The translations under genes were made by a program, and so were the position numbers. The notes beneath the pieces are model-generated. The model searched no databases. It was not told the DNA's origin and worked only from the letters and a program-made list of their open reading frames with translations. Positions 42,959-64,000 of a stretch of 64,000 nucleotides of DNA are shown here, in pieces; positions within the stretch are counted from its first letter, which is position 1, and every line of letters begins with the position of its first letter. The stretch lies in the IMG/VR virus record IMGVR_UViG_2585427945_000001. The stretch is one strand, 5' to 3'. The stretch comes from an uncultured virus (IMG/VR IMGVR_UViG_2585427945_000001). Taxonomy: Duplodnaviria > Heunggongvirae > Uroviricota > Caudoviricetes.

Positions 42959-42973
42959 GGGCCCTCATGATCT

Positions 42974-48950: not shown

Positions 48951-51900
48951 CAGGTCCACCGTCCTGTCTCTAGATCTGCTGCCACGTTGTTGTCGTGCAC
49001 GACGATTTCCGTCCGCACGATGTCCTCGATCTCTCGGTCCCCGACGAAGACCCTGACGTCCGCCTGGAGCGTCGTCGGACTGGAGCCACCCGCGGACATA
49101 CCGTTCGTCGCGCGGGCGATGGCCATGGAATCGGAGTTCGAGTGGACTCGCGTCGGGGTGAGGAACTCCAGCAGTTCCGGCCCCCGCTCCCCGACCCACG
49201 CCGTCTCACCGAGGCCCGGGAAGCCGCCTGCCGCGTACCCGCCGGGACGGTTGTACGCCTTCGGAAGCGACCCGTACGCGGCCTTCGCGTAGCGCATCGA
49301 GGAGAAGATGTTGGCCAGCGGGTTGGTCGAGACCCCGTACAGCTTGGGTCCGACGCCCTGCATCTGGCCGGCGTAGGCGTCGAAGGTCGGCCGGATGACC
49401 TGCATGAGGCCGACCGACGGGTGGCCCGCCTGCCAGTTGGAGTCCCAGCGGTTGACAACGTTCGGGTCACCGCCGGACTCCTGCTGCATGCGGCGCAGCG
49501 TCAGGTCCGCGTACGACGCCGGGTTGCCCGTCATCTTGAGGGCCTGCTGCACCGTGCCACGCCAGCGGTTGACGCTCTTGCCGCCACCGCCCCCGGCGCT
49601 GCTCAGGTACGGCATGGGGTCCACCGTCTTGCCACCGACTCGCGCCTCCAGGTGGAGGTGAGGGCCGGTGACGTTGCCGGTGGCGCCAACCTGTCCGATG
49701 ACCTCGCCCTGCCGGACGCTCTTGCCGAGCGTGGCAACGAGGGAGGACATGTGGGCGTAGAGGGACGAGAGCCCACCACCGTGCGCGACCGTGGCGTGTA
49801 CACCGTACGGTCCGCTGCTCCCCGTCGATGCCACCTTGCCGTCGGCCACGGCGCGAATCGCGGTACCCACGGCCGCCGGGAAGTCGAGCCCGGTGTGATG
49901 CCCGGAGGACCACATCTTGCCCGCGACGCCGAAGCGAGTGCCGTACGGGGCGTTCACGGGCTTGATCCACTGCCCGCTGCCGCCCCCGTCCCCTCCACTG
50001 AAGACCTCGATCGCCTTGTCCTTCAAGGAGTTCAGCACCTTGCCGGGGATCTTGGCGACGGATTTCGACCACGGGTCCGTCAGATACGGCTTCAACTGGC
50101 CCGCGATGTAGTCCTTCGCCTTGCCGAAGATCGCCGTCGGGTCCATGAAGTCGCCGATGCCGGATATGAAGCTGCCGACGTCGTTCGCCTTGTCCTTGAA
50201 CCAGCCGACGATGCCACCGTTCTTGTAGGCCGGCATACCGCCCGCAATCGCCTTCTGAACGCCGCCGACGCCGCCTGAACGAGCAGCGGCATTCCACGCG
50301 TTGATCCGGTCGGCTCCGATTGCCCGGGTCCACTCGGGACGCATGACAGCCTCACCGCCGCCCACGGCGATGACTCGGTCATCACGGCCCGGGGAGTAGC
50401 CGGACATGATGCCACCCGTGTGGAAGCCCTCAAGGTTCAGCTTCTTCAGCGGGTCGGCGCCTGTGACCTTGGAGACCGCATTCCACAACGGCACGATTCC
50501 GCCGTTGTACACGTGCTCCATAATGAAACGCACAGGCTTCTTGGCGATATCCTCGACCTTGTCCCAGGCCCGTTTGATCGAGTCCTTGGCGTCGTTGAAG
50601 GAATCCGCCACGGCACTAACGGCCTTCTTGATTCCGTCGAATGCCGGCTTCAGGGCCTTGTCGTAAAGCCAAGTCGCCTTGTCCGCGATCCAGCCGAAGA
50701 CTGGAGAAAGCACCTTGTCCCAGAGCCACTTACCGGCGTCGCCCAGCGCCTCGAACTTCTTCTTGGCGTCGTCCATGGCGGGCTTGATGGCCTTGTCGTA
50801 AAGCCATCCTGCCTTGTCGCCGATCCACTGGAAGGCAGGCCGGAGTGCCTTCTCCCACAGCCACGTGGCACCGGCTCCGATGCCACGGAAGGCAGGGCCA
50901 AGTGCCTTGTCCCACAGCCACATCCCGATAGCACCGAGCGCCTTGATAGCGAGCCAGACCGGGAGGAGCAGGAGGGTGATCAGGACTGTGATCAGGATCT
51001 GAGCAGCGTCCGCGATGAAGCTGAAAGCGGGTCGGAGCGCCTTCTCCCACAGCCAGACGGCTGCGGAGCCCACCGCCTGCATCCCCGCCCATATGCCGTC
51101 GAATGCCGGCTTGAGGCCGTTGTCCCAGATCCAGATTGCCGCCGTCTTGATGGCACCTGCGACGGTGTCCACCGCGACGCGGAACCAGTCCCAGTTCTTG
51201 TAAGCGTAGACAACGGCTGCGACGAGAAGGCCGACCACGAGAATGATGGCCCGGATGATGGGGACAATTCCCGTCGCGCTCAATGCCACCGCCCAACCGC
51301 TTGTGGCGATGGTGGCGACAATCATGACCGACTCGTACAGCACCATAGCGCCTGCGAAAGCGGTCATGCCGAGCGCTATAGCCTTCTGGGCGAAATAGAG
51401 CAGCCATAGCGTCTGAATGAACTCTGGGCAGTTCGTCGCCAGCCACGATATGGCACCGAAGAGCGGGCCCAGAACGTCGAACATCGCCGTCGACAACGGG
51501 GAAAGAGCTTTCGCGGTGTCCAATGCGGCGCGCATGATGTCGCCCAGGAACTCCGCCAGACCAGGTGACGTGTCCTTGACGTACGCGAGGAACCGTTCAA
51601 AGTCCGGGGACCCCTTCAGGCTCGCACCCCACTTGGCGAATCGGCCGGTGATGCGGTCGGAATGCCTGACGATCCCTTCCATGTGCGGGAGGAACGCGTC
51701 GATCATCCCCGTAATGCCCTTGAGGACGTTGCCGAACGCCCGGCCGAACCCCTCAACGGCAGGCTGGACGTTGCCTCGCAAATCCTCCTTGAAGGACACC
51801 CAGAAAGGCTCCTTCATTTCCGCCGACGCACTGTCCTGGAGGGACTCGATCCCCTTCGCAGCACCGAGCGCCAGAGGCGTCAGGCCGGGCAATGTGTTCT

Positions 51901-54115
51901 TCGCGCTGTCCACCCCGCGGGTAAACAGGGGGAGCACGTCGGGCTGGAGAGCGAGGGACCATTCCTTGAACGCCTCGGTCAGCCCTCGCGGGCCGGCGAT
52001 GGAGTCGTACAACGCCCGCTGGGGCGGTGTGAGGTCCGCAAGCGCCTTACGGTACTCGTCAGCCTTGGAGATCGCCTGGACCGTGGTGTCGATCGAGGAG
52101 AGCCGGGCGGACTGCACCGAGCGTTCGGCGGACGCGATGGACTCCGCGGCAGACACTTGTGCGTCGGCAGCCGACTGAACGGCGTCAGCGACCCCTCGTT
52201 GGGCGTCGGCCACAGACTGAGCGGACTCCCGCGGGGAGCGGGCCGCCTTCGACTGGGCGTCGGCCACGGCCATGGCGGCTTCCCGGACCGCCCTCTGAGC
52301 GTCGGCCAGGCCCTCGGTCTGGTCCCGCACCCGCCGCTGTGCGTCAGCCAGTCGGTCGGCTGCTGTGGTGACGGCGTCGGACCCCTCCACGCCGGCCTTA
52401 CGCATCTTGCGCGCCTCGGCCTGGAGGTCCGTGTAGCTCTGCTTCTGCTTCTTCTGGCTCTGGATCGCCTGGTCGTAGGCAAGCTGAGCCTTGTCGAAGT
52501 CAGTCTGACTCATCAGACCGGCGTCGTACCGACCCGTCGCCCGCTGGAGTTCCTCGCGGGCCTCGGTCACCCGCAGCGCTGCCTCACGCTGGTTGAGGGC
52601 ACCGTCGGTGAGGCGGTCGTTCAGGTCCTTCAGCGCACGTTCGGCGTCCTTGCGGGCCCGGGTGAGGCCCTCCTCCGCCTCCAGGGCGTTCTGGTTGGCG
52701 TCGGTGAGACCCTCCTGCGCGTTCCGCACCCGACGATGGGAGTCCACGAGGGACTGCTCAGCACGCTTGATGTCCTCGGCCGACTGCTTGCGCTGGTCCG
52801 CTGACCGCTGAACGGCCTGCTGGACGGCCCGCTCTGCGTCGGCCACCTGACGAGAGGCGGATGCGATGGACCGGGCGGCGTTTCGGTGGGCGGTTGCGAG
52901 CGTCGCTTGTGCGCCAGCCATCTGAAGGGCCCGCTGCGCTGCCTGCTGGTTGACCTTCGCGCTGTTGTCGGTGGCAGTCGTCGCCTCCTTCTCAGCGGCG
53001 GTCTTCGCCTGCATCACCTCCATCACATCCATGACGGCCGGGATGGCGACGAGGGCCACTGCACCGATGCCACCTGCGGCTGCCGTCGCCATGGCGGCTA
53101 CGGCACCGAGACCCGCGGCAAGTACGGGCCCGAGGGGGATGGCGGCCAGGACCGCAGCCTGAATCGTCAGGCCCAGCAGGGCACTTGAGGCCCCGGACGT
53201 GTCAGCCAGGGCCTTGATGCGGAAGATCTTGGTGTCGTCCGCCATGGCCTGTAGAGCGGCGAGCTGGGCTGCGGCCCGCTGGGCGTCCACCCGGACGTCG
53301 ATGTCATGCCGCTGCACGCTCAGGATCGCGAGGCGCTCTTGCAGATGGTTGATCTTCGCAAGTGCCTCGGTGGCGCTGATGTCGATCCCGATGCGCTTGT
53401 CCGACAGCTCGGTGAGCTGCGCACGAATGCCCTGGATCTGCGCGCGGGCCGGCGATGTGTCGGCGTCGACGTTGATCTCGGGAAGGGATGCCTGCGCCTC
53501 CTTGACGGCCGCACGCATGCGGGCGCCCAGGGTCCCGTCAGTCTCGAACCGGATGTGGCCGGGCCGAGCAGTCAGGAGCGCGATCTCCTCCCGGATCTCC
53601 GCCAGAGCCGCGCGAGCTGTGGCGGTGTCGGCCCGTACCGCGATGTTCGGATGAGCAGCCCCCAGCCGACGGAGCTGCTCCTCCAGCCGCGTGACCTCCG
53701 CCTCCGCGGCTTCAGCGGATACGTCGATACCCACGCGCTTGTTGGAGAGCTGTTCCAGCTTGGCCCGGATGCGGGCGAGCTGGGCGTCTACACCCTCGTC
53801 GCTGAGCTTGACGTCCAGCTTCGGCATGGCCTTGAAGGCCGCTTCGAGCTTCCTCCGGATGCTGCGCGCGAAGGCGCCACCCGCGTCGTCACCCTGCTTG
53901 CCCGCTACGCGAACACCCACTCGACCACCGTTGACGATGGCGTCGGGGATGGCGATGACGATATTCTTCGATATCGCCTCCCCCATCCGCTTACCGGCGT
54001 CCTCGCCGACCCTGTCCGCGATGGGAAGAACCATCGCCTTCAGCTTGGTGTGGAACTGGGGGATCACGGGGACGACGTCGACCGCCGCACCACCGACGAT
54101 GTCAAGGTCCGGCAC
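48950..54115 (-). CDS. Tape measure protein with M23 peptidase and lytic transglycosylase domains
   Basis: 1721 aa, helical, with Trp-periodic repeats; HTGLDF...YAH...GPHLHLE; QESGG...GLMQVI. Confidence 0.95.
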   Translation of the reverse strand: MPDLDIVGGAAVDVVPVIPQFHTKLKAMVLPIADRVGEDAGKRMGEAISKNIVIAIPDAIVNGGRVGVRVAGKQGDDAGGAFARSIRRKLEAAFKAMPKLDVKLSDEGVDAQLARIRAKLEQLSNKRVGIDVSAEAAEAEVTRLEEQLRRLGAAHPNIAVRADTATARAALAEIREEIALLTARPGHIRFETDGTLGARMRAAVKEAQASLPEINVDADTSPARAQIQGIRAQLTELSDKRIGIDISATEALAKINHLQERLAILSVQRHDIDVRVDAQRAAAQLAALQAMADDTKIFRIKALADTSGASSALLGLTIQAAVLAAIPLGPVLAAGLGAVAAMATAAAGGIGAVALVAIPAVMDVMEVMQAKTAAEKEATTATDNSAKVNQQAAQRALQMAGAQATLATAHRNAARSIASASRQVADAERAVQQAVQRSADQRKQSAEDIKRAEQSLVDSHRRVRNAQEGLTDANQNALEAEEGLTRARKDAERALKDLNDRLTDGALNQREAALRVTEAREELQRATGRYDAGLMSQTDFDKAQLAYDQAIQSQKKQKQSYTDLQAEARKMRKAGVEGSDAVTTAADRLADAQRRVRDQTEGLADAQRAVREAAMAVADAQSKAARSPRESAQSVADAQRGVADAVQSAADAQVSAAESIASAERSVQSARLSSIDTTVQAISKADEYRKALADLTPPQRALYDSIAGPRGLTEAFKEWSLALQPDVLPLFTRGVDSAKNTLPGLTPLALGAAKGIESLQDSASAEMKEPFWVSFKEDLRGNVQPAVEGFGRAFGNVLKGITGMIDAFLPHMEGIVRHSDRITGRFAKWGASLKGSPDFERFLAYVKDTSPGLAEFLGDIMRAALDTAKALSPLSTAMFDVLGPLFGAISWLATNCPEFIQTLWLLYFAQKAIALGMTAFAGAMVLYESVMIVATIATSGWAVALSATGIVPIIRAIILVVGLLVAAVVYAYKNWDWFRVAVDTVAGAIKTAAIWIWDNGLKPAFDGIWAGMQAVGSAAVWLWEKALRPAFSFIADAAQILITVLITLLLLPVWLAIKALGAIGMWLWDKALGPAFRGIGAGATWLWEKALRPAFQWIGDKAGWLYDKAIKPAMDDAKKKFEALGDAGKWLWDKVLSPVFGWIADKATWLYDKALKPAFDGIKKAVSAVADSFNDAKDSIKRAWDKVEDIAKKPVRFIMEHVYNGGIVPLWNAVSKVTGADPLKKLNLEGFHTGGIMSGYSPGRDDRVIAVGGGEAVMRPEWTRAIGADRINAWNAAARSGGVGGVQKAIAGGMPAYKNGGIVGWFKDKANDVGSFISGIGDFMDPTAIFGKAKDYIAGQLKPYLTDPWSKSVAKIPGKVLNSLKDKAIEVFSGGDGGGSGQWIKPVNAPYGTRFGVAGKMWSSGHHTGLDFPAAVGTAIRAVADGKVASTGSSGPYGVHATVAHGGGLSSLYAHMSSLVATLGKSVRQGEVIGQVGATGNVTGPHLHLEARVGGKTVDPMPYLSSAGGGGGKSVNRWRGTVQQALKMTGNPASYADLTLRRMQQESGGDPNVVNRWDSNWQAGHPSVGLMQVIRPTFDAYAGQMQGVGPKLYGVSTNPLANIFSSMRYAKAAYGSLPKAYNRPGGYAAGGFPGLGETAWVGERGPELLEFLTPTRVHSNSDSMAIARATNGMSAGGSSPTTLQADVRVFVGDREIEDIVRTEIVVHDNNVAADLETGRWT

Positions 54116-54573
54116 TACGCCTCCTTTGGCTGGTTCCGCAGACGCGGGTCAAGCGCGCGGCGCTGGTCGTCCGTCATCCCCTTCCGGGGCGTGACGTTGG
54201 GGGGGATTCCGGGGCGTGACGTCGGCGTGAATTCGGGAGGCTTACCGCCGGCGGCTGCGATGGCCACGGAGCGGCTGAGTACGATCTCGTCCCGCAGCTC
54301 CGCGAGGAAGATCTCGACACGGCTCCACGGAGCCAGGTCGGGGCGGTACTCGGTACGAGCCCGCTCCATCTGCTCCGGCGTCACCGCGTTACGCATCTCC
54401 GTCTTCGTCGACGACTCCTGCGGGAGCTTCTCGATCCAGATGCGGAGGGTGCGGAGGGAGACACCCCCGCGGTACACGTCCAGGAGCCTGGCTCCGGGGT
54501 AGTACCGCGGGATGTCAGCCTCTAGCGCTTCCGCGTGCTCTTCGAGGACTTGGCACGTCCAGAGGACTTTCCC
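54115..54573 (-). CDS. Tail assembly chaperone, -1 frameshift extension (gpGT-like)
   Basis: Open -1 frame KVLWTCQVLEEHAEALEADIPRYYPG... starting from the slippery site. Confidence 0.85.
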   Translation of the reverse strand, partial: GKVLWTCQVLEEHAEALEADIPRYYPGARLLDVYRGGVSLRTLRIWIEKLPQESSTKTEMRNAVTPEQMERARTEYRPDLAPWSRVEIFLAELRDEIVLSRSVAIAAAGGKPPEFTPTSRPGIPPNVTPRKGMTDDQRRALDPRLRNQPKEA

Positions 54574-54842
54574 GGGGCCTCCCCGGTGGACTCCATGGCG
54601 GCCGACGTGAAGTCGTTGATCTCGTCGAAGGTCGGGTCCAGGTCGATGAACGACTGGACGTCGTCCTCATGCAGGACGCCAGCCGCCCACGCGTCGTAGT
54701 CGCCGTTCCGGAGAGCACGGAGGTACGAGGGCCGCCACTTGTTGCCGGGCTTGATCCGCAGCTCAGCGCCACAGAGCGTCGCCGTGCCGTACTCCTCGTT
54801 CGCCTCGTTCTCCTGGGCGTCGGCAGGGGTGATGTCAGTCAT
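54522..54842 (-). CDS. Tail assembly chaperone (gpG-like)
   Basis: Between the major tail and tape measure genes; ends ...GEAPGK. Confidence 0.88.
   Translation of the reverse strand: MTDITPADAQENEANEEYGTATLCGAELRIKPGNKWRPSYLRALRNGDYDAWAAGVLHEDDVQSFIDLDPTFDEINDFTSAAMESTGEAPGKSSGRAKSSKSTRKR
54567..54573 (-). other. -1 slippery site G GGA AAG
   Basis: Same heptamer as lambda G/GT, in the correct phase. Confidence 0.88.
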
Positions 54843-54943
54843 GGGCGCGGGTCTCCTATGTCAGGGGGTAGCTCTGCGCGGGTCTACGTGCAGGGTGAAG
54901 CGACGCCCCGGACCCGCGCGGAACGGGGCGTCGCTGGTCAGTA

Positions 54944-55002
54944 GGTGCGGCCTAGCCCAGGTCGAGGGCCACGGTTCCCGGCGACACCGTCAGGGAGAAG
55001 GG
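54944..55002 (-). other. Putative -1 frameshift cassette on the major tail gene, encoding an Ig donor strand
   Basis: C CCT TCT CCC TGA followed by a hairpin; -1 frame reads ...SLTVSPGTVALDLG*. Confidence 0.7.
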
Positions 55003-55598
55003 GTGTCACCCTCCGCCTCGAAGAAGCCCGAAACGTCTACGCCGCCGTAGTCGATCGAGCGCCTCACAGCACTGGAGTTACCGGCACCCTTGTAGAACTT
55101 GAACGTCATCTGCACGTTCATGACGTCACTCGTCTGCGGCTGTTCGTCGCCACGCTCGACGACCTTCCCGTTCGGCATGTAGAGCCGCATCCGCTTGTCA
55201 CCGTCCAGGGTGTCGAAGACGAATGCGTACCGAAGGTCAGCCGGCTTGTCGGGGAGGGAGTACGTCACGATGTCCTCGGTGGGCTCCAGGGAGGCCACGG
55301 GCACGTTGTCGTACAGGGCCCGGACAAGCGGGGACAGGCCCTCCAGGAAGGTGACCTGCGTGCTCTTGACGCTCTTCGTCATGAGCGTGCGGATGGGCTC
55401 CAGAGAACCTGCCGCATCGACGTCCTTGGACTCCTCCTCAATCTTGAAGAGGCCGCCGTCGGTCGTCACCCAACCCATGTTCATCCACGGGGTGGCCGGG
55501 TCGGCGAAGTCGACCGGCATCACGGTGTTGATCGGCGCCGCGTACACGAGATAGTCACTTGCGCCGAACGTCAGATCGGCATTGCGGGTGTCCGCCAT
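54990..55598 (-). CDS. Major tail (tube) protein
   Basis: W.NMGWVTTDG motif; upstream of the tail assembly chaperones. Confidence 0.9.
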   Translation of the reverse strand: MADTRNADLTFGASDYLVYAAPINTVMPVDFADPATPWMNMGWVTTDGGLFKIEEESKDVDAAGSLEPIRTLMTKSVKSTQVTFLEGLSPLVRALYDNVPVASLEPTEDIVTYSLPDKPADLRYAFVFDTLDGDKRMRLYMPNGKVVERGDEQPQTSDVMNVQMTFKFYKGAGNSSAVRRSIDYGGVDVSGFFEAEGDTPSP

Positions 55599-55661
55599 GA
55601 ATGCCTCCAGGGCATGCGTAGGGGCTCCGTGAGTCGACTCACGGAGCTAGGTAGTCGGGGG

Positions 55662-56033
55662 TTACGCGGCCCGGAGGCTCACGGTGTACGTGGCGCCACG
55701 TCGGTGGACTGCCTCGTTGGCCCAGGGCTGGCGCGTGGGGCCGGACATGCAGCGGACGGAGCGGATGACGGCGCCGGGAACCGGGCCTGTGAGGAAGACG
55801 AGCGCCTCGCGTACCTCGTTAGCCAGGCTTCGCGCCTCATCCGCCGTGGCTGCGAACACGTCGACGGCCACGGCGGGGGTCTGCCCGAAGCGACCGTCCG
55901 CGCCGGCGACGCGCTCCACGCGGATCATGGGGAGTGCGTCCTCCAGGTCCGCAGGGGTCTCGGCCGCGCAGAAGACGCCGAAGCGGCCCTCCAGCCACGG
56001 GGCGAGGACGGCCTCCACGTCAGCCATTGGCAT
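55662..56033 (-). CDS. Tail terminator-like protein
   Basis: LPMIRVERVAG...VAVDVFA; position before the major tail gene. Confidence 0.78.
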   Translation of the reverse strand: MPMADVEAVLAPWLEGRFGVFCAAETPADLEDALPMIRVERVAGADGRFGQTPAVAVDVFAATADEARSLANEVREALVFLTGPVPGAVIRSVRCMSGPTRQPWANEAVHRRGATYTVSLRAA

Positions 56034-56382
56034 GCTCCGCCAGGGCCGCCATGTACGCCTTGGTCAGCGGGGCGTACCGCGGGATGTTCCAGTTGCCGTA
56101 CTCCACCGCCTTGGCGTGGGGAGCGGTGTTCACCACCATGGCTCCGTGCCGCATCCGGGGCTTACCGCGGAACGGGATGTTTCTGAACACCGGCTCGACG
56201 CTGAAGCTGGCCTTGTACAGGCCGGGGTGCCTGTCCTCGGCAGGGTCGCCCACCGGGGAGAAGCCCTCCGCGGAATGCATGATCCGCACCGCTGCGTCGC
56301 GGCACGGCTTGCCCATCCACGGGCGACTGACCATGCGGCCAAGGCCGCTGTACTTACCGACGTACTTGGAGCGGTACGTCAT
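56020..56382 (-). CDS. Neck protein (HK97 gp10-like)
   Basis: SPVG....GLYKASF...APHAKAVEYG. Confidence 0.78.
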   Translation of the reverse strand: MTYRSKYVGKYSGLGRMVSRPWMGKPCRDAAVRIMHSAEGFSPVGDPAEDRHPGLYKASFSVEPVFRNIPFRGKPRMRHGAMVVNTAPHAKAVEYGNWNIPRYAPLTKAYMAALAEHANG

Positions 56383-56738
56383 CCGGTCACCTCCTTCAAG
56401 GCGGCTTCTACGCGAGCAAGGGACGTCAGGGGAAGGACGAGCGGGCGGCCGATGACCTCCCACGCCTCGGCCCCGTCCTCGCTGACGATGCGGTCCGCTG
56501 GGCGAACGTCGGTGCCTAGAGGAGCAGCGAACACTCTCCGGGTGATCACGGTCTCGCTGGCGTCGTGCTCCTCCGTCGAGGAGCCCACGGTCACGCCGTA
56601 CGGGCTCATCACGGCGCAGTGGTCGACGCGGATGCGGATCTTGGGGCCGGGCACCCAGGACCCCGTAGAGTCCCGGACCCGCTCCCCGGCCCGCTCGATG
56701 TACCACGTCTGCGACAGCACGTTGGCGATGAGGCTCAT
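56379..56738 (-). CDS. Head-tail stopper/adaptor
   Basis: DVRPADRI....WEVIGRP; position after the connector. Confidence 0.75.
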   Translation of the reverse strand: MSLIANVLSQTWYIERAGERVRDSTGSWVPGPKIRIRVDHCAVMSPYGVTVGSSTEEHDASETVITRRVFAAPLGTDVRPADRIVSEDGAEAWEVIGRPLVLPLTSLARVEAALKEVTG

Positions 56739-57112
56739 ACCGGCCGCCACACGGTGACCGGCGGGACGTAGTCCGCGGGGGCGATGTCGAGCATGCCGGC
56801 GCCTGTGGGCATCCCGACTGCACGACGAAGCCGTCGAAGCTCGTCGTCGGAGAGGACGACGCCCGTCTGTGAGTCTGCGTAGGACTGGAGCATGCCGCCC
56901 GCCTGCTCGGTCCTGAGCCCCTGGGGGTTCGTCAGGATCCGAGCGGCGACGGACAGGGCCACCGTCTTGATGCCGCGCTGCGGGGGCTCGGTGATCCGGT
57001 CCCCCACCTCACCGAGGATGGCGTCTTCAGCCAGGTCGTGGGCGAGCTGGGCGCGCTCCTCGGTGAGCGGGGTGCCCAGGAGGGCCCGCAGCTCAGCCAG
57101 GCTGAACAGCAT
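56735..57112 (-). CDS. Head-tail connector
   Basis: VALSVAARILTNPQGLRTEQAG...LSDDEL. Confidence 0.8.
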   Translation of the reverse strand: MLFSLAELRALLGTPLTEERAQLAHDLAEDAILGEVGDRITEPPQRGIKTVALSVAARILTNPQGLRTEQAGGMLQSYADSQTGVVLSDDELRRLRRAVGMPTGAGMLDIAPADYVPPVTVWRPV

Positions 57113-57335
57113 CGCCGCCCCCCGTCTTCCGGCGAGGAGAGGCCCGTTTGACGGGGGCTGCTCTCTTCGCCGGCGGCGCCACGTGTGCCGACTTACGTGG
57201 AGCCGGCGCGATCTCCCACGCCTTCGAGTTGGTGATGAGCGCCTGTGCCCACTCGGGCACATCGTCGCCGGGGCCGAACACATGGGCGCGACCCTGGGCG
57301 TCTGTCAGGTGTACGTTCGTCCGGAGTCGCGCCAT
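57093..57335 (-). CDS. Small head-associated hypothetical protein
   Basis: FGPGDDVPEWA...ITNSKAW with a basic tail. Confidence 0.75.
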   Translation of the reverse strand: MARLRTNVHLTDAQGRAHVFGPGDDVPEWAQALITNSKAWEIAPAPRKSAHVAPPAKRAAPVKRASPRRKTGGGDAVQPG

Positions 57336-57336
57336 G

Positions 57337-57600
57337 TCAGCTCACCGTCAGTTCAGCGGTGGACGGGCTCACGGCGAGCGACTCCGGGTCGTCGGTGACG
57401 GTCACGGTGCACGTTCCGCTCTTACCCTGCGCCGTCGCAGTGATCACGGCAGTACCCGCGGACACCGCTGTCACGAGGCCACCTGCCGAGACCGTGGCCA
57501 CTGCCGGGGTGGCACTGGTCCACGCGGCTGTGCTGGTCACGGTCTGCTTCGCACCGCTGGTCAGGGTAAGTTCCGCGGCGAGCTGCTGGGTCTTAGCCAT
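57337..57600 (-). CDS. Stand-alone Ig-like (Big_2) protein with the first strand moved to the C-terminus
   Basis: Starts at KTQQLAA, ends DDPESLAVSPSTAELTVS; GAGGA RBS. Confidence 0.88.
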   Translation of the reverse strand: MAKTQQLAAELTLTSGAKQTVTSTAAWTSATPAVATVSAGGLVTAVSAGTAVITATAQGKSGTCTVTVTDDPESLAVSPSTAELTVS

Positions 57601-57633
57601 TCATCCTCGTCTGTCGTCGTCGGGTTGGTCACA

Positions 57634-57693
57634 GGTGCCGCCTCAGCCCGTGGTCAGGGCTGCGGTTCCCGGCGACACCGTCAGGAAGAAGGG
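57634..57693 (-). other. Putative -1 frameshift cassette on the major capsid gene, encoding an Ig donor strand
   Basis: C CCT TCT TCC TGA followed by a hairpin; -1 frame reads ...FLTVSPGTAALTTG*. Confidence 0.7.
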
Positions 57694-58718
57694 TCGTCAA
57701 GCACCGTTGCACGGAGGGTGAGGTCCGGGGCGGCCACGACCGGGAGGGCGATGGTGGTCGCGCGAGTCCACACGGTCTGTGGGTCCTCCGACTTGTAGCC
57801 GCCGACGGCGATACCTGCGGCGTCGCCGGCCAGGCCGTACCGCGGGTCGTTCGCCTCAACCGGCACACCCCACAGGGTTTTACCGGCGGCGTCGCCCTGC
57901 TCGGGCAGGAAGAGGAGCTGGTCCTCAGGAGTGATTCGCGTGGCGACTCCGTCCACATTCACCTGCGCGTCGTAGATCTCGACCGGCGGGATTCCGAAGG
58001 AGGCCAGTACCGCGTTGACACTCGCTTCGGTGATCAGGCCGGGAGCCACGGCGGAGCCCGCGAACGCCAGGTCGCGCACCTGCTTGTTCCGCATCAGCAG
58101 GTTGTACACCGTCAGCGACATCAGCGTCGCTGCTGGACGGTGCCCGTTGGTGCGGTTGTACACCGCCACCCACGCGCGAAGGTTGTCGATCGCCTTCGCG
58201 TTCTCGGTGTCGTCCCACGCCACCGACGCGGTAACCGAGTGGGCCGCCGAACGGCCGAAGTCTACGGACGCCTGGACGCCGTTCTCGTTCAGCGTGACGG
58301 CCCCAGTGAACAGCGCCTCGCCCCGGGCAAGCTCTATGCGCGCCGCGAGCTGAGCGACGAGCTTGACAGAGTCCGACTCCATGGCGTCACGGATATCGGC
58401 GTTCTGGGTGTCGACGTTCCGCATCTTGATCTGGTCGTACTCAGAGACGGGCATCTTCCTGCTGATGGGCGGCAGTTCGCCGCTCACCCGAGACCCGCCA
58501 GGCCGGTACGCGATGTCCGACTCGGCGTCGAAGGCACGGAACCTCGCCGCCTCTACGAGGCCGCCCCCGCCTCGGCTGAAGCGAAACATCAGGTCGTTGA
58601 TGGTCTCGTTGGGGAGCCACCGGTTCAGGTTGAGCGCGTTCTCCTCGCGGAACCGGAGCGCCTCGCGGGCGTAACCGGTGAGTTCCGCAGGAGTCGCGTA
58701 CTCAGTGATGAGCTGCAT
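57681..58718 (-). CDS. Major capsid protein (lambda E-like family)
   Basis: 345 aa after the decoration and scaffold genes; GELPPISRK, ARIELARGEAL. Confidence 0.92.
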   Translation of the reverse strand: MQLITEYATPAELTGYAREALRFREENALNLNRWLPNETINDLMFRFSRGGGGLVEAARFRAFDAESDIAYRPGGSRVSGELPPISRKMPVSEYDQIKMRNVDTQNADIRDAMESDSVKLVAQLAARIELARGEALFTGAVTLNENGVQASVDFGRSAAHSVTASVAWDDTENAKAIDNLRAWVAVYNRTNGHRPAATLMSLTVYNLLMRNKQVRDLAFAGSAVAPGLITEASVNAVLASFGIPPVEIYDAQVNVDGVATRITPEDQLLFLPEQGDAAGKTLWGVPVEANDPRYGLAGDAAGIAVGGYKSEDPQTVWTRATTIALPVVAAPDLTLRATVLDDPSS

Positions 58719-58731
58719 GTATCAGGGCCTC

Positions 58732-59127
58732 TCAGACGAAGATGATGCGGCCGGCGACATCCGCCTTGCCGTTGGCGTCGACGGGGACAGGGAGCTTCGC
58801 CTCACGGATGAAGCAGTGGATGAGCATCGAGCCCACGACCGAGGTGGACGCGACCCCGCGGGCGTCGACGTCCTGAGCGGTGAAGAGGAAGCCCACGAGG
58901 GTCTGCCGACCGTCGCTCGCGGCGTCGTCGTACGGGCCGTACTTCCCGCCGGTCGTCACCTTGCCGAGCGGGATGCCGCTCTTGATGTAGCCGTCCGGGT
59001 AGTGGGTGGCCTTCGTGAACTTCGAGATGTCCAGGGTGACCGAGACAGGGGCGTCAGTGCCGTGGGCGCTGCCGAGCCAGTCACGGCGGTCCTGGGTGAA
59101 GCTCTCAACCTTGAGGTTGAGGTCCAT
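58732..59127 (-). CDS. Head decoration protein
   Basis: GYIKSGIPLG...YGPYD..ASDGRQ; between scaffold and capsid genes. Confidence 0.8.
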   Translation of the reverse strand: MDLNLKVESFTQDRRDWLGSAHGTDAPVSVTLDISKFTKATHYPDGYIKSGIPLGKVTTGGKYGPYDDAASDGRQTLVGFLFTAQDVDARGVASTSVVGSMLIHCFIREAKLPVPVDANGKADVAGRIIFV

Positions 59128-59151
59128 GGATCCTCCAGAGGGGAGTAGTGG

Positions 59152-59688
59152 TTACTTGCCGTGCTTCTGCCGGAAGCGCTCAGCTCCGGTCGCGACCGAC
59201 GAGCCTCCGCCGACGTCGGATCCGCGGTCTCCGCCAACCCGGTAGGTTCCGGTGGCGCCCGTGGGAGCGAAGTCCTTCAGCAGCGCGTCTGCGTCCGCCT
59301 CCAGCTCCTCCTTCGTGGAGCCCTGGAGACGCGCGGCCTGCGTGGTGGTGAGGCTCTTCGCGATGGCGACTTCGAGAAGCAGCGCCCTACGGACCGCTGC
59401 GTCGGCCTCCGCGCGAGCGGTAGCGGCGGCTGCCTCTGCGGTCGCCTTCTCGGCCTGGACCCGCTCGGTCTCGGTGAGGTCGGCCGCCTGGCGCCTCTTC
59501 AGCTCCTCGTCGGCCTGGCGCAGTCGCTCCAGCTCCGTGGCGTCCGGGGCGGCCTTCGAGGCTGCCTCATGCTTGCGGGCGTGGTGCTTCCAGTACGCCA
59601 CCTGGTGTTCGGGCGTCATGTCGGCCGTCGGCGTGTTGTCCGGGTAGCCGTGCTCGTTGACGGTCGGGAGGTTCTCAGGCTCAGGCAT
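59152..59688 (-). CDS. Capsid scaffolding protein
   Basis: YWKHHARKHE; coiled coil; RLQGSTKEELEADA. Confidence 0.85.
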   Translation of the reverse strand: MPEPENLPTVNEHGYPDNTPTADMTPEHQVAYWKHHARKHEAASKAAPDATELERLRQADEELKRRQAADLTETERVQAEKATAEAAAATARAEADAAVRRALLLEVAIAKSLTTTQAARLQGSTKEELEADADALLKDFAPTGATGTYRVGGDRGSDVGGGSSVATGAERFRQKHGK

Positions 59689-59729
59689 GGTGGGGTCCCC
59701 TGTCGGGAGTCGTCAGCCCGTGGCGGGCG

Positions 59730-60539
59730 TCAGGTCGGAAGACGGATGTCATCGGGGCCGGTGAAGCGCTGGCCCTTGAAGCCCAGAACGGGCCCGATCT
59801 CGCCGTGGTCGTTGGCGATAATGATCTTGCGGTAGTCCACCGCGCGGCCTCCGCGGTCGAAGGTGCCGAGCGCGTCCTCCACGGCATCGTGGATGCGTTC
59901 GAGCTTCTCTTCGTCGATGACCTGGCCGGGGTCCTCGTCGGCTGTCACCAGCTTCACGAGGCAGTCACACCCGGGATGGATCGGCGCTAGGTCGCGCTTG
60001 TGGTAGCGCTGGGTGGAGGCGATCATGCAGAGGGCGCAGTCGTACTCGCCCTGTAGTTCTCGGACGGTGTACGAGAAGCGAGGCATGTCGTCCCCCACCT
60101 CTCGCACAGTGTGGGTCCGGGCTAGCTGTAGATCCGTCTTGGCGATGGTTTCCAGCCGGTGCGTACCGCGGGCCAAGGCGGCGTCGAAAGCGACGTCCTT
60201 GTCCAACGCGGCCCAAACCTCGGCGAACGGGCGCCGGTAGACGGTCTCAGGATCGACGTCGCGTAGCGCGCGTCCGGTCACCCTGTCAAAGTCCAGGTCC
60301 GTCCGCGGTGCTCGCCCGTCGACCTCGCGGTACAACTGCTCCAGGTACGACGCCGTGAGAGCGGCGACCTGCCGCTGACCACCAAGAAGCACCGGCAGAG
60401 TAGTGCGCTCGAAGCGCCGCACGTCGGCATCACGCCACGAGCCGAGACCGGACCATGCGCGAGTGGTACGACCGAGGGTCGTCCTCCACACGCTCTGCAC
60501 TGCGGCGCCGTACTGCCGGTCAAGCCGCGTCAGGGACAT
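59730..60539 (-). CDS. Minor capsid / maturation (MuF-like) protein
   Basis: CALC..ASTQRY.....PIHPGCDC; follows the portal gene. Confidence 0.75.
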   Translation of the reverse strand: MSLTRLDRQYGAAVQSVWRTTLGRTTRAWSGLGSWRDADVRRFERTTLPVLLGGQRQVAALTASYLEQLYREVDGRAPRTDLDFDRVTGRALRDVDPETVYRRPFAEVWAALDKDVAFDAALARGTHRLETIAKTDLQLARTHTVREVGDDMPRFSYTVRELQGEYDCALCMIASTQRYHKRDLAPIHPGCDCLVKLVTADEDPGQVIDEEKLERIHDAVEDALGTFDRGGRAVDYRKIIIANDHGEIGPVLGFKGQRFTGPDDIRLPT

Positions 60540-62028
60540 CGTCCTCCTCGCGGGTGATCAGCGTTCGGGAGTCGCGCTTGCCCTGGAGGGACGCCGGCTC
60601 GGGATCCGTGTCGGGCACGGCGTTCAGGGCGTCAGCCGCGCGGTCGATCTCCATGCGGGAGATCTGCGACGGGGTGTAGCCCATGTCCTCCATGCGCTGC
60701 CGCCACGGGACGCCGGCCGAAGCCTTCTTGACGGCTGCGTCCGCGAGTTCCGAGACGGTGCGGGACTCGGGGTCACGCCAGATGGTCTCAGCGCTCCATG
60801 TCGTGGCGCGCTCGTCGTCGCCCAGGACCCGGAAGGCCATGCGCATGACGCTCTCCCATGACTCGCCGTACGCACGTTGACGGTCGCGCACCTTGCTGAT
60901 GAGTCCGGTTTCCGCAGCTTTCAGCGCGTCGCCGGAGACGTTCACAACGGCGCCGATCAGGTAATGCGGAGGTGTGCGGCTGATTGCGGCCAGATCCTGC
61001 ACGGCGGCAGTCACGGCGCGCACGTAGGGAGCTAGGTCCGTAGCCGCGAACTCCCCAAAACGGACGTCGGGGTTGTCGGTCGTCCAGAGCTTGCGGATGT
61101 CTAGCTGGAAGGGCTGGATCGCTGCCCCGGTGATCGGGTCCTCGTCGACCTCCAGGCCGGCGGCGTACCGCTGTCGGAAGGCGCCGTACTTCATGGCGGC
61201 AATGAGGTTGATCAGCGAGAGGTTGATGCGGTTCTGGATCGAGAGGACGTCCTCGTGCTCCGCGAACCCTTCCGGCCGACGGTTTCGACGGTTGATGAAG
61301 GGAACGAGGGGCACCACGCCCAGCTCGTTCACACGGTAGCCGTCGGGCAGGTTCGGAAGCGCCAGGGCGTCCCACCCACGAAGCTCCGCAGCGCGACCGG
61401 AGAAAGCCGGGTTGCCAGTCTTCGTGGTGAACTCGTGCACCCCCGTCGGCGTCCAAAGCGTCGCCCGGGTGTTCCCGGTCCAGTCATCACGCCAGAGCTT
61501 CAGTCCGGCAGCCAGCTTGCGCCGATTGCCCTGCTCATGTTCGACAGCCACCTGCGTGGGTGTCTCATGAGTCAGCACAGGCCGCCCGTCGTCGCCCTTC
61601 TCCACGAGGACGAACGCACGCCGCTGAGACATGGCGCCGTAGTGCACCAGGGCGGAATCAGCATCCATGCTGTTCTCCTGCCAGATGCGGTTGGCCTCCC
61701 GGTCTGCCACACGAGCATCGTCAGGGGAGTCCCGGTCTGCATCGTCGAACCGGAAGCCGTCAACCCCCAGCCGCTCGCCGGGGCTGTCGATGACGAGACT
61801 GAGCCAGTTGGTGCGGGCGTCCCGCATCCACTCCGAAATCTCGCGCGGATCAACGCCCGGAACGTGTGGCAGCTTCGGCTTCCCCTCTGCGGCCTTCCGG
61901 AGGGAAGTGAGCCCTGGGGTGACCTCGTTGTCGTCGTCGATGCTGTCCTTGCGCTCGTCCAGCATCCTCTTGCCTAGCCGCTGGAGCCACCATCCCGGGG
62001 ATTCCGGAACCTGTGCGTCAACCGGCAT
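60520..62028 (-). CDS. Portal protein (SPP1 gp6-like)
   Basis: ANRIWQEN, LGVVPLVPF.N, SGDALKAAE; follows terL. Confidence 0.93.
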   Translation of the reverse strand: MPVDAQVPESPGWWLQRLGKRMLDERKDSIDDDNEVTPGLTSLRKAAEGKPKLPHVPGVDPREISEWMRDARTNWLSLVIDSPGERLGVDGFRFDDADRDSPDDARVADREANRIWQENSMDADSALVHYGAMSQRRAFVLVEKGDDGRPVLTHETPTQVAVEHEQGNRRKLAAGLKLWRDDWTGNTRATLWTPTGVHEFTTKTGNPAFSGRAAELRGWDALALPNLPDGYRVNELGVVPLVPFINRRNRRPEGFAEHEDVLSIQNRINLSLINLIAAMKYGAFRQRYAAGLEVDEDPITGAAIQPFQLDIRKLWTTDNPDVRFGEFAATDLAPYVRAVTAAVQDLAAISRTPPHYLIGAVVNVSGDALKAAETGLISKVRDRQRAYGESWESVMRMAFRVLGDDERATTWSAETIWRDPESRTVSELADAAVKKASAGVPWRQRMEDMGYTPSQISRMEIDRAADALNAVPDTDPEPASLQGKRDSRTLITREEDDVPDAA

Positions 62029-62040
62029 GCGTCCTCCTCC

Positions 62041-63753
62041 CTAGAATGCGACGAGGCGGCCAGTCCGCTTCTTTCGCTTAGTGATCCCTGCGGCAACGGC
62101 GTCAGCGCGGCACTCGTAGGCGAGCGTCGCGGACATGGCGGCGTCGATCTTCTTCGGCGACTTCGGGTGTTCCTTGCCGATGCCGATGTGGTTGCGTCCC
62201 AGCGGCCGACGCTTGGCGTTCAGCACGTGGCGGGTGAGTGTGGTGCCTTTGCGGGCGTAGTCGGCGTCGGTGTCACCGGCCTTGTCGGTGCCGCACCACG
62301 AAAGGCCCTTGTCGTCAACGGCCTCCACGAAGCGGTTGAGGGCCTGCTCCATGGCCGTCGGACGGTTGGTCCACCACTCCAGCGGGCGGGCCTGTGTAGC
62401 GCGTACCGACAGGTTCTCGCCGTAGTCCCTGGTCCAGGCGTCCGCGTAGTCCTGCCAGTGCGGCGGGTCGCAGTAGAAGCCGCACACGTCGAAGCGCTCG
62501 AAGGCTCGGGCGACGGCAGCGTCAACCGACTCCCGGTCGACCTGCCACCCGTCGCCCTCTGGACCCTCGGGCTTCTCCCAGACCCCGAGGAGCTGGAGGT
62601 GGCCGTCAGATACGCGGCAGGCTGTAAGGGCCGTGGCGTCGTCGCGGATCGATCCGTCGAAGCCGAGTGTGACCAACTCGCCGGGGGCGATCTCCTCGTC
62701 CCGCCGGCAGAGAAGCCAGGCGTCCGGGTCCATCCACGCATCGGAGGACGACGTCCGGGAGTTGAGGAAGTAGCGCTTGCCGTCCGCGGAGTCGGTGCGG
62801 AGGTCGTAGAAGTCGTCGACGAGGGTGTCTTCGTCGATCCACTCCATGGCGTCGCCGTACGCGTCCCGGAGAGCGGCACGGAGCTGGACCTCATCCTTCA
62901 AGTCCGCGCAAACGCCGTAGCGGTGGTCGTACATGAGTCGCGACCGGCCGCGCTTCTTGCGGCCCTCGCGGATCGCTTCGGCCTCCTCGTACGTCCGCTC
63001 AGCGACACTGTCCTGGCCCGGGGCGAACATGGTCGTGGTTTCGAGATACCACGTGCCGGCGCCCTTCTTCCTCTTGCGGAGGTTTCGGGTCACGGTCGCG
63101 TACATGCGACGCAGCTCAGGCGTGTTGTACAGGTGCGTCTCGTCGAAGCAGACCCACGTCTCCTTACCGCCGTCCTTCGAGGAGGATGAAGCGGTTGACG
63201 GGGTGATCTCCCCACCCTGCGGAAGGTTGATCTTCGTCAGGCCGGGATCGATGCCTGGGATGGCGGAGAGGGGTGACGACTCGTCGGTCAGGTTGAAGTA
63301 GATCGTGTCGTAGACGTTGCCGGTCTGGCCTTCCTCCGTGGCCATGATCCGGAGGTACGGCACCTTGACCGGGCGGCCCATCGGCTCACCGGGCTCGTAG
63401 ACGTACTCGAAGCCGAAGCCCCAGGGGTCTCGGTAGACCTCTCCGCCCTCCGCCCAGCCGGCGAACCGGGCGGGGCCGAGCGCTTCGAAGAGTCCGATGC
63501 GGGCGCCTAGGCCGGACTTGTCGCAGCCCTTGGGGCGGGAGAAGAAGGCCGAGTCGTAGAGGAGCTTGCCCTCGTCGTCATCGACCGCGTAACAGTCCAC
63601 CACGAAGCCGCTGTACTCGTCGCCGTGGCGGACGGGCTCACCCTGGACGTCACCAGGGCCGTGGACGACCATGAACTCCATCCACGCCAGCGCCATCCAC
63701 CCGATCGAGCGGGACCGATCATGACCCGGGGCGCGTACCGTGACGTGCGGCAT
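62041..63753 (-). CDS. terL: Terminase large subunit, copy 2
   Basis: Identical to 5846-7558. Confidence 0.93.
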   Translation of the reverse strand: MPHVTVRAPGHDRSRSIGWMALAWMEFMVVHGPGDVQGEPVRHGDEYSGFVVDCYAVDDDEGKLLYDSAFFSRPKGCDKSGLGARIGLFEALGPARFAGWAEGGEVYRDPWGFGFEYVYEPGEPMGRPVKVPYLRIMATEEGQTGNVYDTIYFNLTDESSPLSAIPGIDPGLTKINLPQGGEITPSTASSSSKDGGKETWVCFDETHLYNTPELRRMYATVTRNLRKRKKGAGTWYLETTTMFAPGQDSVAERTYEEAEAIREGRKKRGRSRLMYDHRYGVCADLKDEVQLRAALRDAYGDAMEWIDEDTLVDDFYDLRTDSADGKRYFLNSRTSSSDAWMDPDAWLLCRRDEEIAPGELVTLGFDGSIRDDATALTACRVSDGHLQLLGVWEKPEGPEGDGWQVDRESVDAAVARAFERFDVCGFYCDPPHWQDYADAWTRDYGENLSVRATQARPLEWWTNRPTAMEQALNRFVEAVDDKGLSWCGTDKAGDTDADYARKGTTLTRHVLNAKRRPLGRNHIGIGKEHPKSPKKIDAAMSATLAYECRADAVAAGITKRKKRTGRLVAF

Positions 63754-63772
63754 CGGCGCCCCCTCTCTGTAG

Positions 63773-64000
63773 TTAGCCGGTCAGCCTCGCTCGCCGTGAA
63801 GTGATGTCGGAAACGTTGCTGCCAGGGCTCTGTGCGGGCCTCTGCGGGGCGCTCGTGGGGTCGTCGACCTTGAGCTTGAGGCGGGCCCTGTCCTCCGGCG
63901 TGGCGCCGAACTTGGCGACTCTGAGGCGTACCTCAGCGGCCAGGGTCCAATGCCCTTTCTGCCAGTACGCGTTGTGCAGCAATGCCGTATCCAAGAGGCT
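63773..64000 (-). CDS. terS: Terminase small subunit, copy 2 (truncated by the window edge)
   Basis: Matches the 3' part of 7578-8045. Confidence 0.85.
   Translation of the reverse strand, partial: SLLDTALLHNAYWQKGHWTLAAEVRLRVAKFGATPEDRARLKLKVDDPTSAPQRPAQSPGSNVSDITSRRARLTG

Follow-up and report, generated by a model that had tools for sequence, protein, structure and literature searches.

A candidate portable -1 frameshift cassette at the 3' termini of major capsid and tail genes in a high-GC actinophage

Fraser et al. 2006 are said to have described immunoglobulin (Ig)-like domains on phage structural proteins. According to the parts of two sources considered here (PMC5009743, PMC8718954), Ig-like domains are appended by frameshifting to capsid or tail proteins in the phages T3, A2, A118, A500, PSA and SPP1, the members being T3 gene 10, the head and tail genes of Lactobacillus phage A2, cps and tsh of the Listeria phages A118, A500 and PSA, and SPP1 gp17.1*. 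In the same parts, one phage may have both genes affected, and the domains move between genes (PMC5009743, PMC8718954). The capsid protein (gp8) and the tail-tube protein (gp13) of mycobacteriophage Douge carry C-terminal Ig-like domains that bind mycobacterial surface glycans, as stated in the portion of PMC13033339 used here. Recoding in tail operons is further exemplified by the tail-chaperone pair G/GT of lambda type, for which the consulted part of PMC5009743 gives a -1 shift and a fixed product ratio.

We analysed a stretch of phage DNA of 64,000 nucleotides, referred to as the window, in which the major capsid gene and the major tail gene end in the same short element. Our overall reading, to which we give a probability of about 0.6, is that this element is a portable cassette for programmed -1 frameshifting, which would add a tag for docking to the 3' ends of both genes. 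Literature searches on frameshifted Ig-like capsid and tail proteins and on donor strands in phages brought up no description of the site or of a split Ig domain.

Genome context and anatomy of the element

The phage genome comprises about 56.2 kb and is printed past its own end in the 64-kb window, positions 1-7805 and 56185-64000 being 99.8% identical (15 indels, 0 mismatches). All genes of the region lie on the minus strand. The late operon runs from terminase, portal, protease, decoration protein and major capsid protein to a small Ig-like ORF, followed by head-tail connector and neck genes, the major tail gene, two tail chaperones and the tape measure gene. The candidate cassette is carried by a high-GC actinophage. 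The nearest isolated phage is Streptomyces phage Samy, with 82.8% identity across the first 1,084 bases of the query, a stretch which takes in the last part of the decoration gene and then the capsid gene to about 35 bases short of its stop; neither of the two elements is present in Samy. Eight tRNAs are encoded in the genome, Pro(UGG) and Ser(CGA) among them, and none could be linked to the frameshift site. The features of the late operon and of the two copies of the element are as follows.

59730-60539, minus strand: protease gene
58732-59127, minus strand: decoration protein gene
57681-58718, minus strand: major capsid gene, 345 aa, stop TGA 57683-57681; phrog_29 major head protein, E 1.6e-65
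57693-57687, minus strand: putative slippery heptamer C_CCT_TCT, capsid copy, in phase, three codons before the stop
57686-57680, minus strand: capsid spacer TCCTGAC, containing the zero-frame TGA 57683-57681
57634-57679, minus strand: capsid two-part hairpin, base 7 nt past the heptamer
57679-57671 and 57642-57634, minus strand: capsid outer stem, GGTGTCGCC (RNA GGUGUCGCC) with GGCGGCACC, 9 pairs, one of them G-U
57662-57657 and 57649-57644, minus strand: capsid inner stem, CAGCCC with GGGCTG, 7-nt loop
54990-55598, minus strand: major tail gene, 202 aa, stop TGA 54992-54990; phrog_476 major tail protein, E 9.4e-28
55002-54996, minus strand: putative slippery heptamer C_CCT_TCT, tail copy, phase as in the capsid copy, three codons before the stop
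between tail heptamer and hairpin, minus strand: tail spacer CCCTGAC, containing the TGA 54992-54990
54944-54988, minus strand: tail hairpin, a single C-C mismatch in the outer stem and UGGCCC/GGGCUA as the inner stem
54988-54980 and 54952-54944, minus strand: tail outer stem, 3' arm GGCCGCACC, 8 of 9 positions pair
within the tail hairpin, minus strand: tail inner stem, TGGCCC with GGGCTA, 7-nt loop
54573-54567, minus strand: tail-chaperone heptamer G_GGA_AAG, leading into ORF 54115-54477
1445-1504, minus strand: repeat print of the capsid copy by the wrap of the genome; heptamer 1498-1504, match 1474-1504

Capsid and tail genes alike end in ...C_CCT_TCT_(T/C)CC_TGA, and the arm GGTGTCGCC starts 7 nt past the heptamer. 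A first-pass annotation of this DNA had described, for both copies, a heptamer in the same phase, a 7-nt spacer with the stop and a two-part hairpin; all its coordinates were verified on the minus strand. It had also placed the heptamer outside the XXXYYYZ pattern, which is correct, as C_CCU_UCU is in phase but has UUC and not YYY at positions 4-6. Upon a step back by one base, re-pairing would be full in the P site (CCU to CCC) and incomplete in the A site. The GGGAAAG site of the tail chaperones, proposed there as a third recoding site of the same operon, lies in canonical phase and opens into the next ORF.

Among 4,481 late-gene codons, in-frame CCT-TCT occurs at these two gene ends only. 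The codon use of 13 late genes includes TCT for 14 of 254 Ser codons, 77 CCC against 28 CCU, and abundant UUC. A 22-nt core, CTGACGGTGTCGCCGGGAACCG, is common to both copies and was found three times in the window (0.02 expected), a count which includes the wrapped repeat of the capsid copy; it occurs nowhere else in the window. Since the window wraps a genome of about 56.2 kb, the "third" copy is the capsid copy again. All three frames, the -1 frame included, close within the element in both copies. Moreover, a TGA in the -1 frame lies two codons upstream of the capsid heptamer, so that a shift would be confined to the five codons around the heptamer. TGAC flanks the element in both window copies. 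The motif GGAGGG, located 8 nt before the tail heptamer, was considered as an upstream Shine-Dalgarno-like stimulator and rejected as inconsistent across sites.

The inner stem had been claimed to covary between the copies (CAGCCC/GGGCUG versus UGGCCC/GGGCUA), and the replacement of C-G by U-A and of A-U by G-U is indeed seen. For the outer stem, which had been described as paired with a G/C variation, the claim stands in the capsid copy with its 9 pairs and fails in the tail copy, where the G/C change is uncompensated and leaves the C-C mismatch. Folded together with the upstream context, neither window copy returned the outer stem (z -1.2 to -1.4). When only the downstream sequence was folded, the capsid copy gave the hairpin of the first-pass annotation (z -0.45), and the minimum free energy structure of the tail copy paired the 5' arm with a terminator-like hairpin further downstream (z -0.04). 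The window hairpins are unexceptional for 67% G+C. A scan of 54400-58000 for intrinsic terminators found 0 terminator-like sites, neither hairpin is succeeded by a T-run, and no relevant Rfam family was matched by the element. As a separate observation, a strong hairpin of terminator-like appearance lies downstream of the tail copy. Part of the apparent RNA covariation doubles as protein coding in the -1 frame.

The -1 frame and a split Big_2 domain

57643-57693, minus strand: predicted capsid -1 extension PFFLTVSPGTAALTTG, closed by TGA 57645-57643; resembles Big_2 strands A/A', PSSM 8.8, p 1e-4
54952-55002, minus strand: predicted tail -1 extension PFSLTVSPGTVALDLG, closed by TAG 54954-54952; PSSM 10.3, p 4.7e-5
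57337-57600, minus strand: 87-aa Ig-like ORF with its own ATG and a Shine-Dalgarno-like GAGGA; Big_2 strands B-G and a trailing A-type strand SLAVSPSTAELTVS

At all sites the -1 frame follows the pattern F-x-L-T-V-[ST]-P..., and for the capsid copy the same PSSM gave -35 and -26 in the other two frames. With a strand-A matrix built from 35 intact domains, the -1 frame scored far above both other frames at 12 of 12 sites; empirical p values against 127,906 15-mers of the window ranged from 0 to 0.018 and were at or below 1e-3 in 10 of the 12. The +1 frame holds no Ig-like peptide. When aligned with 35 intact Big_2 domains, the -1 peptide falls on the missing first strand and ends exactly at the start of the ORF, and the non-coding gap between capsid gene and ORF appears as a 17-residue insertion. 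The extension in the window comprises 16 codons and corresponds to strands A/A', not to a whole Ig domain. These comparisons argue that the -1 frame is a conserved coding frame, in which the capsid junction peptide would read ...DDP-F/S-FLTVSPGTAALTTG.

The 87-aa ORF matches Pfam Big_2 (PF02368) with 35.9 bits at a cut-off of 22.8, its residues 3-67 covering positions 18-78 of the 79 in the profile. Positions 18-78 are likewise covered by the ORFs of locus L050 and of Thermobifida phage P318, which is less than the whole domain. All six split ORFs start at the same position of the domain, with M-A-x-[ST]-[QE]-Q-L, and a purine-rich ribosome-binding sequence and an ATG of its own were seen for each; at 49-79% identity they represent diverged lineages. 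Past the last domain strand, five of the six carry an A-type strand. It reads SLAVSPSTAELTVS in the window, LMTVTPGTADLDLTEA in the IMG/VR provirus L007, SLSVTPSSVTLDSPGGSGS in L114, IDVEPSSAVLELGE in the P318-like L183, and SLSVTPPTATVELG in G001, and is absent from the intact domain of L112. A corresponding end, INVEPSSAELELEE, is found in the annotated P318 ORF.

The Ig ORF is located after the capsid gene in the window and in P318, and after the tail gene in G001. Tag and ORF share one frame in the window, with two TGAs between them, and are in different frames in P318 and L120. This difference among phages argues that tag and ORF would be translated separately. Tags without an adjacent Ig gene are found on the tail genes of the window, P318, the P318 relative IMGVR_3300016268_000035 and L113 and on the capsid gene of G001.

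AF2 modelling of an artificial single chain, obtained by reading the window stretch across both TGAs, placed the tag in two strands (E2-8, pLDDT 91, and E11-15, pLDDT 79), followed by a linker at 46, a core at 95-97 and a loose trailing tail (64, 56); this result leans on the alignment of intact homologous domains. For the 87-aa ORF alone the mean pLDDT was 88.9, residues 69-87 being without a strand; in neither of the two AF2 models was the trailing A-type strand modelled as a strand. A fold search returned Big_2 domains as the nearest solved structures, among them the capsid protein and the tail-tube protein of Douge (8zdj_S, 37% identity, and 8zdh_B, 33% identity). At the level of sequence comparison we show a Big_2 domain to be split, the first strand pair being predicted on the tag and the rest in the 87-aa protein, which amounts to an acceptor without one strand and a matching strand on another polypeptide. 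According to the consulted part of PMC6893835, ORF22 of P318, which is the split Ig protein, was found with 18% LC-MS/MS coverage in gel-filtered virions.

Recurrence of the element in other phages

Heptamer, stop and stem were also present at gene ends in eight further phage records, the genes belonging to several capsid and tail families. By PHROG assignment, all host genes are major capsid genes (phrog_29, phrog_2263) or major tail genes (phrog_476, phrog_117, phrog_2491, of which phrog_476 and phrog_117 overlap on the same proteins), the site being located 3'-terminally. In four records, namely the window, P318, IMGVR_3300016268_000035 and G001, it occurs on the capsid gene as well as on the tail gene.

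A pattern scan of viral contigs with the heptamer fixed yielded 10 stretches; 3 were chance matches, and the other 7 lie at gene ends whose -1 peptide is Ig-like. With the four bases before TTC left free, 114 stretches were obtained and 51 non-redundant ones examined. A long gene end together with an Ig-like -1 peptide was seen in eight of these, the heptamer being CCCTTCT in 7/8 and CCCAAAT in 1/8; L189, L124 and L216, long gene ends from the same scan, were counted as chance, as their -1 peptides are not Ig. Searching five records with the Ig protein alone, independent of any nucleotide pattern, added two more cases, L356 and L358. The former is the tail gene of G001, with CCCTTCT, the tag PFSLTVAPSAVVLPLG followed by a stop, the arms GGUGGCGCC/GGCGUCACC and an Ig ORF thereafter; the latter belongs to G002, which has a capsid gene without a tag and an Ig ORF of 73 aa without the trailing strand. 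At 10/10 non-redundant CCCTTCT sites the base before CCT is C, the preceding codons encoding D, T, V, A and S; C is used at third codon positions with a frequency of 0.55 (window) and 0.32 (P318).

In Thermobifida phage P318 the capsid gene is followed by an 81-nt gap and an 88-aa Ig ORF. The capsid gene carries a canonical C_CCA_AAT at the equivalent place, with the -1 peptide PKFTLTVTPDSVSLELGS and a stop. The P318 tail gene ends in GTC_CCT_TCT_CCC_TAA followed by CGGTGTCGCC, and its -1 peptide reads PFSLTVSPATVELSF before the stop. Window and P318 tail sites have 22/23 bases in common; in the P318 tail hairpin the outer arm is as in the window and the inner stem is wholly different. The GenBank record of P318 has no frameshift annotated at the capsid or tail gene. 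The tail tags of P318 and L113 differ by two synonymous and three conservative codon changes. UCU accounts for 34/132 Ser codons in P318 genes and is not rare there. L112 shows the classical arrangement, its -1 frame continuing for 85 codons and encoding a whole Big_2 domain, and the tags of L114 and L120 extend over 35 residues.

Forty-six viral contigs encode a relative of the capsid protein (38-81% identity), and 45 of them lack the element and have a different next gene; element and small ORF occur only in L007. Relative to Samy and to 45/46 capsid relatives, the element thus resembles an inserted module. Conservation in L007 is higher in the element than in the spacer after it, and the pairing of the inner stem is kept, with G-C changed to G-U. 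In the tail gene of the same record (locus L002), the tag is absent and the 5' half of the element is missing. All sites derive from one mobile module, so that their conservation may partly reflect recent transfer.

Among the matches listed in a heptamer-free scan of genome contigs, 1/120 was true, namely L334, a P318-like tail site; the other listed matches were rejected as ordinary genes read in another frame, e.g. a conserved Streptomyces gene with QFFLTVSPT, and a host range did not emerge from these matches. A metagenome scan with split-ORF alignment kept 79 loci, 75 of which were intact domains in large proteins, two ran off the contig edge and two were split. The latter are L361, with scant upstream DNA, and L364, which resembles the L114 contig (same ORF). 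The best 150 matches of a profile search in 1.84 billion representatives were giant tandem Big_2 proteins only, and a word-indexed protein search gave 5 matches. In the phage collection the split type was found in P318 only, and no DNA match to the element was obtained there.

Downstream-only folds of 11 sites gave free energies of -20 to -45 kcal/mol, with z between -2 and -6 in 8/11 and +0.17 for L112. The base of the stem lies 6-8 nt after CCCTTCT in 8/9 such sites, L112 being the exception; at both CCCAAAT sites, of the P318 capsid type, the same arm lies 10 nt past the heptamer, and in L356, the twelfth site, 7 nt past it. At 12/12 sites the 9-nt 5' arm has a downstream 3' partner scoring 7-8.5 of 9, a score reached by 2 to 136 of 1000 shuffles depending on the site. 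The partner of the capsid arm scores 8.5 of 9 (equalled by 5/1000 shuffles) and that of the tail arm 7.5 of 9 (136/1000). Variant arms come with matching partners, i.e. GGUGUCGCC/GGCGGCACC, GGUGGCGCC/GGCGUCACC, GGUGACCCC/GGAGUCACC and GGUUACGCC/GGUGUGGCC. In a cross-pairing matrix the partner of the own class was best for the variant arms, at small margins and with modest specificity. A compensated structure 5-9 nt downstream is accordingly present across the set, the two window copies alone being statistically unexceptional, and the variants support the view that the basal stem has been maintained by compensatory change.

The first-pass annotation had suggested a non-canonical -1 signal, in which C_CCU_UCU is followed by a short stop-containing spacer and then by a hairpin; what the shifted frame encodes had escaped it. 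This proposal gains from the recurrence of the element, the swap to C_CCA_AAT, the conserved coding in the -1 frame and the compensated basal stem, and from these comparisons -1 frameshifting very probably takes place at C_CCU_UCU sites.

Proposed mechanism, alternatives and relation to known systems

We infer slippage, its rate, the tRNA events, docking, polymerisation and function alike, and envisage the following course. With CCU occupying the P site and UCU the A site, three codons short of the stop, the ribosome would meet the base of the hairpin 7 nt downstream, that is, at the mRNA entrance. A fraction of ribosomes would move back by one base, Pro-tRNA passing from CCU to CCC. The A site would then present UUC, and either Ser-tRNA slips along or the rarely used UCU is still empty. 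The tRNA account is one of these two options, a tandem slip with Ser-tRNA on UUC or a P-site-only slip over a slow UCU. Upon a tandem slip, the middle position of UUC would be mismatched to Ser-tRNA. The rarity of UCU, the excess of CCC over CCU and the abundance of UUC in the window fit a P-site slip with a slowly filled A site. UCU is common in P318, which argues that the idea of an empty A site is not general.

Shifted ribosomes would add 16 residues, PF(F/S)LTVSPGT(A/V)AL..G, before terminating within the hairpin's 3' half. The peptide would represent strands A/A', with which a Big_2 Ig-like domain begins, and of this domain strands B-G would be made apart as the 87-aa protein with a spare A-type strand at its end. 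On a minority of capsid and tail-tube subunits, the tag would complete one 87-aa subunit each and anchor it on the virion. Docking of the 87-aa protein by such strand complementation stands somewhat better than even and accounts best for the anatomy. The spare strand of a docked subunit could in turn recruit a further subunit. The full picture of non-covalent Ig decorations, in which a low-frequency -1 shift provides a 16-residue donor strand, a 9-kDa subunit snaps on and head-to-tail chains, akin to a nicked tandem Ig array, could grow on two structures, is tentative, and we put it at rather less than an even chance. By analogy with Douge, weak binding to host surface glycans would be a likely use.

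It is conceivable, if unlikely, that the frameshift is real and the tag a relic or in another role, an ancestral whole-domain shift having been cut by a stop and a new start, with the protein attached otherwise or absent. The unsplit form in L112, the loss of one part in some relatives (the tail gene of the L007 record, G002), the confident folding of the ORF alone (pLDDT 88.9) and a trailing strand that is not a strand in the models would suit such a history. A relic, however, accords poorly with a cut kept at the same position in six ORFs of diverged lineages (49-79% identity), with a spare A-type strand kept in 5/6 of them and with tags retained where no Ig gene is adjacent (the tail genes of the window, P318, IMGVR_3300016268_000035 and L113, the capsid gene of G001). 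Changes among tag codons are moreover synonymous or conservative, and ORF22 of P318 is present in purified virions. An element without any recoding, serving as a non-coding RNA signal (terminator or attenuator, RNase site, 3' stabiliser) with the last codons copied along, is improbable. Despite nucleotide divergence the -1 frame fits Ig strand A at 12/12 sites and in L112 continues into the domain, and a non-coding role leaves the invariant silent C before CCT and the CCCAAAT at the same spot unexplained. The U-run, terminator-like sites in the scan and an Rfam match are all missing as well, against which stand the position of the element after the stops of the two most abundant virion proteins, the closure of all three frames within it and the strong terminator-like hairpin after the tail copy.

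The module also occurs in unrelated capsid and tail families, looks inserted relative to Samy and 45/46 capsid relatives, and is flanked by TGAC in both window copies, as might be expected of a selfish insertion or a gene-conversion tract bounded by the inverted repeats GGTGTCGCC...GGCGGCACC and useless to the phage. We consider this very improbable in view of its placement, which is without exception 3'-terminal on a major capsid or tail gene and constant in phase, the lack of a core copy elsewhere in the window and the matching split Ig gene linked in each genome. Hardly credible is a single capsid-Ig chain, produced by a -1 shift with TGA read-through, by a ribosome hop or, in the manner of Listeria phage PSA, by a +1 shift at (U/C)CC_UGA. 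A separate ribosome-binding sequence and ATG are present for each split ORF, the +1 frame holds no Ig-like peptide, and the tail copies offer no ORF for joining; window and L007 differ in the sequence of the gap, which is not conserved, and matched take-off and landing codons are lacking. The single frame shared by tag and ORF in the window, two TGAs apart, would speak for one chain, but this relation is lost in P318 and L120. The CCC_UGA of the tail copy does resemble shifty stops known from the consulted part of PMC5009743.

If the preferred reading of a frameshifted docking tag is correct, a conserved portable cassette whose heptamer breaks the X_XXY_YYZ rule has been missed by gene callers and annotators, and would provide a natural system in which P-site-driven slippage could be tested in high-GC bacteria. 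One domain divided between a recoded tail and a free subunit would be a natural tag-and-catcher and a new way of attaching decorations, and would account for free-standing 9-kDa Ig proteins in virions. The dose of a surface adhesin on two structures, supplied by one gene and set by the ribosome, would become testable. As a small pair for display or capture, the 16-residue tag and the 87-aa protein might also find use in actinophage engineering.

Completion of a fold by a strand of another polypeptide is known from donor-strand complementation in chaperone-usher pili and from engineered Ig-type split pairs, e.g. SpyTag/SpyCatcher, and in donor-strand systems a subunit that both accepts and donates can form chains. 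Pilins lack the last strand and receive an N-terminal donor, whereas in the window phage the first strand is missing, the donor is C-terminal, and complementation is a prediction. The two are unrelated in sequence (the Pfam Pilin family matched the 87-aa ORF with E 0.063, below the cut-off), and no chaperone or usher is evident. The lambda-type G/GT shift belongs to the same operon as the element, but uses a canonical heptamer and a long extension, and its products are not virion parts. Douge resembles the window phage as an actinophage with Big_2-type domains on capsid and tail tube, which are the nearest solved folds; its domains, however, are C-terminal parts of the capsid and tail-tube proteins without a split, and the word "frameshift" is absent from the text (PMC13033339). 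The frameshift-appended Ig systems match the window phage in place, in purpose and in the combination of capsid with tail. The consulted parts of PMC5009743 and PMC8718954 name -1 sites for A2 and T3 and the +1 sites CCC_UGA and ACA_CCC, but not C_CCU_UCU. In phages of the T3, A2, Listeria and SPP1 type the shifted frame encodes a whole domain, whereas in the window phage it would encode the first strand pair only, the rest being the product of a separate gene. The addition of Ig-like domains to heads and tails by frameshifting is thus known; what appears to differ here is the heptamer, and the addition of a single strand pair with the remainder of the domain as a free subunit.

Surroundings of the tail copy of the element

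Two features of the window flank the tail copy:

54900-54934 (-): strong hairpin GCGACGCCCCG...CGGGGCGTCGC, then TT, directly 3' of the tail copy
55012-55017 (-): Shine-Dalgarno-like GGAGGG, ending 8 nt (GGAGG: 9 nt) upstream of the tail heptamer

The hairpin is terminator-like, without a long U-run, and is kept in Samy, the nearest isolated phage, and in the related tail locus L002. Its 5' arm can also form base pairs with GGUGUCGC, an arm of the frameshift stem, and the two structures might therefore compete. For the Shine-Dalgarno-like feature no counterpart is present upstream of the capsid heptamer, and among relatives its occurrence upstream of the heptamer is inconsistent.

Relatives with a partial or altered element

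L002 5670-5700: end of the tail gene (IMG/VR record 2515154149)
L358 1300-1720: capsid gene and Ig ORF (IMG/VR record 3300049139_000049)

The L002 tail gene lacks the heptamer and the 5' arm and ends in GGGCTGAGCCCCACCTAC, which is similar to the 3' half of the element; its stop is at the position of the -1 frame stop in the window. This points to 53 nt having been gained or lost between short GGG repeats at this gene end. In L358, the frameshift tag is absent from the capsid gene and a 73-aa Ig ORF, devoid of both the first and the trailing strand, follows immediately downstream; this arrangement is a natural minimal version. Unlike this capsid gene, the tail gene found in that record (L113) carries the tag. 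In two tagged genes of capsid family phrog_2263 (L114, L120) the -1 tag extends 35 residues to a basic end (...RKRK), and the hairpin is far longer (-44 to -45 kcal/mol).

Genome wrap and further features of the window

The genome of about 56.2 kb is printed past its own end, window 1-7805 and 56185-64000 being the same region. Between these prints there are 15 indels but not a single substitution, a pattern that resembles errors of long-read assembly or a circular overlap left untrimmed. The frame of one ORF is not the same in both (3088-3498 versus 59152-59688).

10567-11726 (-): cluster of eight tRNA genes (Pro-TGG, Ser-CGA, Gln, Asn, two Glu, Arg-ACG, His)
40161-40232 and 42904-42975: direct repeat of 72 nt with 74% identity, which includes TTATGGAGGGGTG...GATGTTTCACGGG
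50624-51140: internal repeats, starts 57 or 135 nt apart, within the 1,721-aa tape-measure ORF
54567-54573 (-): canonical -1 site G_GGA_AAG, within the tail chaperone gene 54522-54842

The 72-nt repeat may be a repeated regulatory region. From the G_GGA_AAG site the -1 frame enters ORF 54115-54477, and this tail chaperone pair (54522-54842 / 54115-54477) has the G/GT type of arrangement.
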